Positions 18,793 to 18,843 of a stretch of 64,000 nt of DNA are shown here, one piece after another. Numbering within the stretch: position 1 is the first letter of the stretch; every line of letters starts with the position of its first letter. The position numbers were made by a program, and so were the translations under genes. This stretch comes from a virus. Taxonomy: Duplodnaviria; Heunggongvirae; Uroviricota; Caudoviricetes. The DNA lies in the IMG/VR virus record IMGVR_UViG_3300021387_001477; one strand, written 5' to 3'. The notes below the pieces were generated by a model. That model was given only the letters and a program-made list of their open reading frames with translations. It did not search any database and was not told the origin of the DNA.

Positions 18793-18843
18793 CTCTGTTT
18801 CGATCTATGATCTCATCAGGCCTAGCATCACTAGACAACAGAG
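18793..18843 (-). ncRNA. type III hammerhead ribozyme
   Basis: Minus strand CUCUG-UU-GUCUAG-UGAUG-CUAGGC-CUGAUGA-GAUC-AUA-GAUC-GAAA-CAGAG; all core nucleotides and three stems present. Confidence 0.9.

Follow-up and report, generated by a model that had tools for sequence, protein, structure and literature searches.

The 51 bases at positions 18793–18843 on the minus strand of the window, which is the name used here for the whole stretch of 64,000 nucleotides of phage DNA that was analyzed, very probably encode, judging by their sequence, a genuine self-cutting hammerhead RNA. Taken as a whole, the observations are best explained by a cis-acting type III hammerhead ribozyme that lies on the sense strand of an operon of a giant rumen phage and forms a self-cutting boundary within its transcript, an explanation in which we have good, if not complete, confidence. 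The hammerhead is the middle element of a conserved module of three parts, being preceded by a stable 5′ hairpin and followed by a 3′ hairpin. Its assignment is based on the sequence, a descriptor search, the predicted fold, a leave-out covariance model and covariation in eight distinct sequences. We infer that the site is transcribed, that its RNA cuts itself in vivo and that RNA stability or gene expression is affected.

The DNA from which the window was taken (IMG/VR record IMGVR_UViG_3300021387_001477) is 318,918 bp in length, with relatives of up to 355 kb, and its source looks like an uncultured giant phage of the rumen. DNA of the phage is present in gut metagenomes of sheep, goat and cattle. 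Two RNA libraries (X2 and X3) contain 0.40 and 0.37, respectively, of the sampled words of positions 14000–23000, word shares which are not informative on the ribozyme. Among the gene products of the window are CobS/CobT-like AAA+ and VWA proteins, an RlaP-type nucleotidyltransferase and a radical SAM enzyme, in addition to many proteins that belong to no family. No DNA similar to the window was found in the phage genome collection.

All of the hammerhead elements listed in the earlier note on this DNA were located on the minus strand, reading from 18843 to 18793. Stem III is formed by CUCUGU (18843–18838) and ACAGAG (18798–18793). It is followed by the cleavage-site nucleotide U17 at 18837, the last base of a GUU triplet, and the cut is predicted to fall between 18837 and 18836. 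Stem I pairs GUCUAG (18836–18831) with CUAGGC (18825–18820) across a loop 1 of sequence UGAUG, after which come the core CUGAUGA (18819–18813), stem II (GAUC at 18812–18809 with GAUC at 18805–18802, closed by the loop 2 sequence AUA) and the GAA trinucleotide that provides G12, A13 and A14 (18801–18799). By both sequence and descriptor, the catalytic core (C3 U4 G5 A6 N7 G8 A9 together with G12 A13 A14) is complete. The A15.1–U16.1 pair is represented by A18798–U18838 and the G10.1–C11.1 pair by G18812–C18802, with position 17 being a U and so a non-G nucleotide. Stems I, II and III are six (or seven), four and six base pairs long, with loops closing stems I and II and stem III left open. The U1.2–G2.2 wobble of stem I is specific to the minus strand, as had been pointed out previously, since the plus strand would have an A–C mismatch in its place, and the plus strand yielded no hammerhead fold (z −0.39). 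The gap of 10 nt from the stop codon of the upstream gene (18856–18854) to stem III is also as described before. This anatomy and the covariation seen in distant relatives strongly support the original proposal that a type III hammerhead lies on the coding strand.

When the 63-nt minus strand is folded in isolation, its structure of lowest energy is the three-way hammerhead junction, and the energy z-score of the isolated motif is only −1.4. Approximately two Watson–Crick pairs are possible between loop 1 (UGAUG) and loop 2 (AUA), and a tertiary contact of the kind required for rapid cleavage at the Mg2+ levels of the cell is not evident in the sequence. Stem I exceeds stem II by two pairs, a geometry that Perreault et al. 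(PMC3088659) tied to the loop–loop pseudoknots of type III hammerheads. Where the lineage of the window has U17, all six of the six distant lineages described below have A17, both being permitted NUH sites. Of the natural triplets, GUC and GUA have been ranked as fast and GUU has been listed as active (PMC3138052).

The author's descriptor identified one compact type III hammerhead in the 64-kb window, at 18793–18843 only. When the descriptor was loosened (stems of at least 4, 3 and 4 bp), the window still gave this one match, compared with three matches in 300 dinucleotide-shuffled windows, or approximately 0.01 loose matches per window. The real match has stems of 6–7, 4 and 6 bp, which are far better than those of the shuffled matches. 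DNA patterns were also searched in sequence collections. The exact ribozyme string and a pattern with the loops fixed had zero matches in IMG/VR, and a pattern of the core and loop 2 had 15 matches there, all attributable to chance and none with a 4-bp stem II. With a pattern that combined the core and CGAAACAG with a downstream motif, 28 matches were obtained in three collections, and 25 of these were not hammerheads. The single IMG/VR match and all 12 in the genome collection were chance occurrences, and of the 15 in metagenomes only those in the loci designated L045, L048 and L051 were real. Searched with the family model, the chance matches from the metagenome and genome collections scored 15 bits or less.

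A search with the Rfam Hammerhead_3 model, the check that the earlier note had recommended, did not reach the cutoff: the site scored 17.9 bits against a gathering score of 48.5, and this match appeared only with a 68-nt query. The hammerhead was absent from the matches obtained with 251 nt around the site, and a search of the whole window at the gathering thresholds returned nothing. The corresponding loci of the relatives (n = 6) likewise did not reach the cutoff of any hammerhead family. This sub-cutoff score is a limit of the curated model and not the absence of a structural feature, and the curated Rfam hammerhead models miss a whole phage lineage of canonical type III ribozymes. There were no other ribozymes in the window at the Rfam cutoff. 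Partial matches to the Pistol ribozyme (cutoff 34.5 bits) occur at 2077–2118 on the plus strand (18.8 bits) and at 20458–20505 on the minus strand (16.1 bits), the former covering P1 and the linker and missing most of the 3′ half.

Twelve near relatives from other rumen samples are 93–98% identical to the window over several kb, and the 51-nt hammerhead is identical in nine of them. In the remaining three (L010–12), a single change inside the ribozyme converts the U–G wobble of stem I to a U–A pair, and CU is inserted immediately 5′ of stem III. At this level of identity, conservation among the near relatives is, taken alone, weak evidence.

More distant relatives were reached through the 428-aa protein encoded downstream of the ribozyme. 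An exhaustive phmmer search with this protein gave 37 homologs of 24–33% identity, on whose contigs are found the promoter motif described below, a long non-coding leader, small genes, a gene for a protein of ~110–130 aa and one for a protein of ~430 aa. In total, six further lineages were found, either by way of remote homologs of the 428-aa protein (22–30% identity) or by DNA pattern, and in each of them the same operon has, on its coding strand, a type III hammerhead. Loci L030, L031–33, L035, and L036 carry exactly one such hammerhead each, 0.7–1.8 kb upstream of the gene for the 428-aa homolog, and in L030 it directly precedes a homolog of the 89-aa gene found next to the ribozyme in the window. 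L048 (identical to L051) and L045 were retrieved from metagenomes by DNA pattern, and downstream of the hammerhead in L048/L051 there is a remote match to the start of the 428-aa protein (30% over 82 aa). Homologs of the 89-, 108-, and 428-aa proteins of the window lie downstream of the hammerhead in its relatives. No second copy of the hammerhead family was present in the window or in any relative locus. Relatives of the 428-aa or 89-aa proteins were found neither in IMG/VR nor, using protein patterns, in JGI metagenomes.

In the eight distinct sequences the core varies only at the free position 7, whereas all three stems differ in sequence. Of the cells in the stems, 99.3% are paired, and compensatory changes affecting both sides occur in 12 of the 18 stem pairs. 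In a test of 500 shuffles, at most one reached the observed value on any of five measures, with none doing so on four of them, and in slid controls, for which the 3′ partners were shifted, pairing fell to 31–46%. RNAalifold, unaided, returned the same three helices as the consensus. A covariance model built without the lineage of the window gave the site a score of 43 bits (E 3.7e-10) and found nothing else credible in the 64 kb. The distant sequences were picked by a filter on the core and stem II or by the pattern, so part of the agreement among them is due to selection; stems I and III were never required.

On its 5′ side the ribozyme of the window is flanked by a hairpin of 8 + 4 bp at 18842–18872 on the minus strand (−18.4 kcal/mol, z −3.2). 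This hairpin spans the last codons of the upstream gene, having the stop codon in its loop, and its 3′ strand shares 2 nt with the outer end of stem III. L030, L031, L035, and L036 have an equivalent hairpin, of unrelated sequence, ahead of the ribozyme. It occurs in every lineage with upstream coding context, 5–14 nt ahead of the cleavage site, and the 62-nt upstream segments across the lineages fold with energies of −14 to −21 kcal/mol (z −2.6 to −7.4). In L010–12 a G–U pair of the 5′ hairpin is changed to G–C, and the CU insertion abolishes the overlap with stem III. When 105 nt of context, comprising the ribozyme, its 5′ hairpin and the beginning of the 3′ flank, are folded for the window, an alternative conformer with a full 5′ hairpin, and with the CUG of the core paired to the CAG of stem III, is favored by 3.6 kcal/mol. 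Given this preference, folding into the active form may be slow or conditional. Folding may be aided by ribosomes that terminate at the stop codon in the loop of this hairpin, or cleavage may simply be slower.

The 3′ hairpin of the window lies at 18771–18789 on the minus strand, and is supported by covariation. It has a 6-bp stem (18789–18784 with 18776–18771) and a heptaloop CUCAAGU (18783–18777). Across the lineages it is found directly 3′ of stem III as a stem of 5–6 bp closed by an invariant A–U pair, and the loop CU(C/A)AAGN is kept in all of them. In this stem 97% of the cells are paired, with compensatory changes in five of the six pairs, and within each locus the hairpin is confined to the vicinity of the hammerhead. 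Three pairs are possible between its loop and loop 1 of the ribozyme, for which there is one compensatory change (L030) and one mismatch (L036). A long-range pairing of ACUCAAG with CUUGAGU (~19365–19372) was considered and rejected, as only one of the two sides is changed in the relatives.

The minus strand carries all genes from 20008 to 16824. The gene immediately upstream of the ribozyme (18854–19018) encodes a 54-aa protein with one hydrophobic helix; its start is more probably the ATG at 19018 than the TTG at 19036, which would give a longer product. Downstream, a 55-nt A/U-rich leader (18716–18770) separates the 3′ hairpin from the gene for an 89-aa single-pass membrane protein (18446–18715), the first of a conserved block of three genes, the second and third of which encode proteins of 108 aa (18123–18449) and 428 aa (16824–18110), respectively. 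The 428-aa protein had no sequence match in Pfam, PHROG or the PDB. Its structural model (mean pLDDT 78) is a string of helix–strand units, and a fold search gave weak matches to proteins with repeated winged helices, namely chains of RNA polymerase III subunits and the La module. The protein may bind nucleic acid.

The nearest same-strand copy of a promoter-like motif, CCTTATATATG, upstream of the ribozyme is at 20655–20665 on the minus strand, and is presumed to be the start of the transcript. With up to one mismatch, this 11-mer has 26 matches in the window against 2.9 expected, including those at 20655–20665 (−), 15351–15361 (+), 35403–35413 (+), and 51052–51062 (−). The copies lie mostly in gaps just ahead of start codons, many of them 0–5 nt before the ATG, and several have TCCGT ~20 nt upstream. 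The same motif is present in the distant relatives L030, L031, L035, L036, and L048. The phage probably uses it as a promoter of its own, and such promoters may possibly give near-leaderless mRNAs. A tRNA-like sequence at 50962–51044 (−) lies 8 nt past the copy at 51062–51052; it scores 28.5 bits against a cutoff of 29, has ~19 nt replacing the anticodon loop and is not called by ARAGORN. In L031, a tRNA above the cutoff (39.7 bits; positions 738–806, plus strand) comes after the promoter motif at the head of the operon with the ribozyme.

Between the motif at 20655 and the ribozyme there are a non-coding stretch of ~650 nt and five or six small genes, and neither a further promoter motif nor a terminator-like site was found in this interval on the minus strand. 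An Rfam JUMPstart match of 17.8 bits (cutoff 35) falls within the ~650-nt leader at 20230–20290 (−), and the 3′ part of this match, GGGCGGUAGCGG, resembles the ops element. Near relatives have 88 extra nt at ~19337 (−) (L003:1794–1881), encoding a 36-aa single-pass membrane peptide that is deleted in the window. As the window has lost this gene where its near relatives have kept it, the block of small genes upstream of the ribozyme is in flux. A hairpin with the stem GCUGGG...CCCAGC at ~19352–19383 (−) covers the end of a 53-aa ORF, and some relatives have a U-to-C change just inside its 6-bp stem.

The earlier suggestion that a polycistronic mRNA is cut after position 18837 fits this gene context. 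The most likely role of the ribozyme is to cut the transcript of the promoter at 20665 between the variable block of small genes and the conserved block of three genes. RNA starting at the 20665 motif would contain the leader of ~650 nt, five or six small genes, mostly for membrane proteins, and then the genes for the 89-, 108-, and 428-aa proteins, and the folded ribozyme would cut its own RNA after U18837. The upstream product would end in a 2′,3′-cyclic phosphate a few nt past the stable 5′ hairpin. The downstream product would begin with a 5′-OH, followed by the body of the ribozyme and the conserved hairpin (two to three hairpins together), the unstructured A/U-rich leader and the 89-aa gene. 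A strong terminal hairpin is the usual means by which an RNA is protected from 3′ exonucleases. Cleavage would uncouple the fates of the fast-evolving small-gene block and the conserved three-gene block, and would provide the upstream RNA with the same kind of end as termination gives in the relatives.

The form taken by the flanking sequences differs between lineages. To an alternative role we attach a lower, though still appreciable, likelihood. Here the ribozyme would be a fail-safe terminator or insulator that provides the upstream RNA with a defined, hairpin-protected 3′ end and detaches any read-through RNA, the effect on the downstream genes being secondary. The 5′ hairpins of L031 and L036 pass a terminator scan, and their U tract is at the same time the 5′ strand of stem III, with L035 being similar. 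In these three loci a promoter motif follows 93–185 nt past the ribozyme, so their downstream genes need not depend on processing. The order in L048 is a terminator-like hairpin, a promoter motif and, 6 nt later, the ribozyme. The window lineage and L030, however, have neither a U tract after the 5′ hairpin nor a promoter motif after the ribozyme, and their upstream ORF stops inside the hairpin. In the window, no terminator-like site was found at the 18842–18872 hairpin, which is followed by UCUGUU, and with no U tract or later promoter motif the downstream genes appear to be dependent on read-through. The terminator or insulator role and the cutting of a transcript overlap and are not exclusive. 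The 93–185 nt in L031, L035, and L036 also carry no annotated gene after the ribozyme and 3′ hairpin, as would be expected if the product of interest were a small stable RNA, comprised of the ribozyme body and the CUCAAGN hairpin with a 5′ end freed by self-cleavage, and not a processed mRNA. We regard this as improbable, given that in the window and L030 a gene starts ~55–70 nt past the hairpin with no terminator between them, and that conserved structure was not seen beyond the 3′ hairpin.

It is doubtful, but conceivable, that the cut is conditional, being gated either by translation of the upstream 54-aa gene or by the binding of a factor to the CUCAAGN loop. In the window, the 2-nt overlap of the 5′ hairpin with stem III and the energetic preference for the alternative conformer are consistent with such gating. 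The last codons of the upstream ORF form the 5′ strand of this hairpin and its loop contains the stop codon, which means that the hairpin has to be opened by a terminating ribosome. The sequence conservation of the 3′ hairpin loop, in turn, suggests specific recognition. Against this, L010–12 have lost the overlap through their CU insertion, with the hammerhead and alternative folds of the L010 variant being isoenergetic (−38.5 vs −38.3), the upstream ORF ends before the hairpin in L031, L035, and L036, and no ligand or protein is known. A related and similarly speculative proposal treats the conserved unit as a natural insulator of three parts, namely a hairpin or leaky terminator with a tail that forms stem III, the hammerhead and the 3′ hairpin, in which the cut is controlled, either by a phage factor that reads the CUCAAGN loop or by docking of this loop on loop 1. 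The candidate factor for this proposal could be the 428-aa protein with its putative tandem winged helices, which is always encoded downstream. Lastly, a chance motif or a cluster of non-catalytic hairpins would agree with the sub-threshold Rfam score and the modest energy z-score of the isolated motif, but we consider it extremely unlikely. The core is invariant and the three stems covary while the flanking proteins share only 22–30% identity, and both the E-value of the leave-out model and the rarity of loose matches in shuffled windows argue against it. A self-cutting boundary between the two gene blocks is the preferred reading of the site.

Hammerheads of prophages flank genes, and the processing of long phage transcripts has been proposed for them (Perreault et al., 2011, PMC3088659). 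The element of the window shares with these and with the Rfam family RF00008 (clan CL00010) the catalytic core, the three-way junction and an open stem III. In common with those of Perreault et al. it is intergenic on the phage coding strand, with the same proposed function of cutting long transcripts into shorter messages. It differs in that both it and all its relatives score far below the Rfam cutoff, in that there is one ribozyme per operon instead of a pair or cluster around a gene, and in that it is flanked by a 5′ hairpin and a 3′ hairpin of conserved loop in an uncultured rumen phage of ~320 kb.

RiboJ consists of a type III hammerhead and then a 23-nt hairpin, and the uncleaved mRNA decays faster (PMC7536230). 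The insulator layout of RiboJ is seen in the window as the hammerhead, the covarying 3′ hairpin, the 55-nt leader and the 89-aa gene, the order in both cases being hammerhead, extra 3′ hairpin and gene leader. In this layout the cut strips off upstream RNA and leaves a structured 5′-OH end, as it would here. In L048 and L045 the ribozyme also sits just after a promoter-like sequence, as in RiboJ. Unlike RiboJ, which was engineered, the present element is natural, has a hairpin loop whose sequence is conserved, which is not required in RiboJ, and is located in the window inside an operon and not at the start of a transcript. The two are alike in design and not by descent, and the comparison is a functional analogy only.

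For HHphage of the haloviruses HF1 and HF2, the 5′ end of a transcript has been mapped to within three nt of the cleavage site (PMC3088659). Likewise a phage hammerhead, HHphage lies a short distance ahead of the first gene in a polycistronic unit. It is a core variant from an archaeal virus that lies 13 nt from the start codon, whereas the window has a canonical core and a distance of ~120 nt between the cut and the start codon. The RNase III sites between the early genes of phage T7 are also intergenic, and cutting of the polycistronic RNA there leaves the upstream message with a hairpin at its 3′ end. The same outcome is predicted for the window, though at the T7 sites a host enzyme produces 3′-OH and 5′-phosphate ends, and the self-cutting RNA would have 2′,3′-cyclic phosphate and 5′-OH ends.

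Neither the hammerhead class nor its occurrence in phages nor the role presumed for it is new. What is new is that giant rumen phages have a lineage of canonical type III hammerheads which goes undetected by Rfam, together with their fixed position in a conserved operon, a terminator tail which doubles as stem III, and a 3′ hairpin of conserved sequence. Intergenic hammerheads have been known in phages since 2011, with their role largely unsettled, and the present case offers a clean and evolutionarily anchored example, in which one ribozyme is found at a fixed boundary of a conserved operon across a family of uncultured rumen phages of ~320 kb. Two variants of the design occur, one being a terminator, ribozyme and promoter and the other a hairpin and ribozyme within one transcript, and RiboJ, a design used by synthetic biologists, has in this arrangement a natural counterpart. 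The sequence-conserved accessory hairpin provides a concrete experimental handle. Should the three-part unit prove to be an insulator whose cut is controlled, these phages would switch from the variable block of small genes to the conserved one in a regulated and not a constitutive manner.
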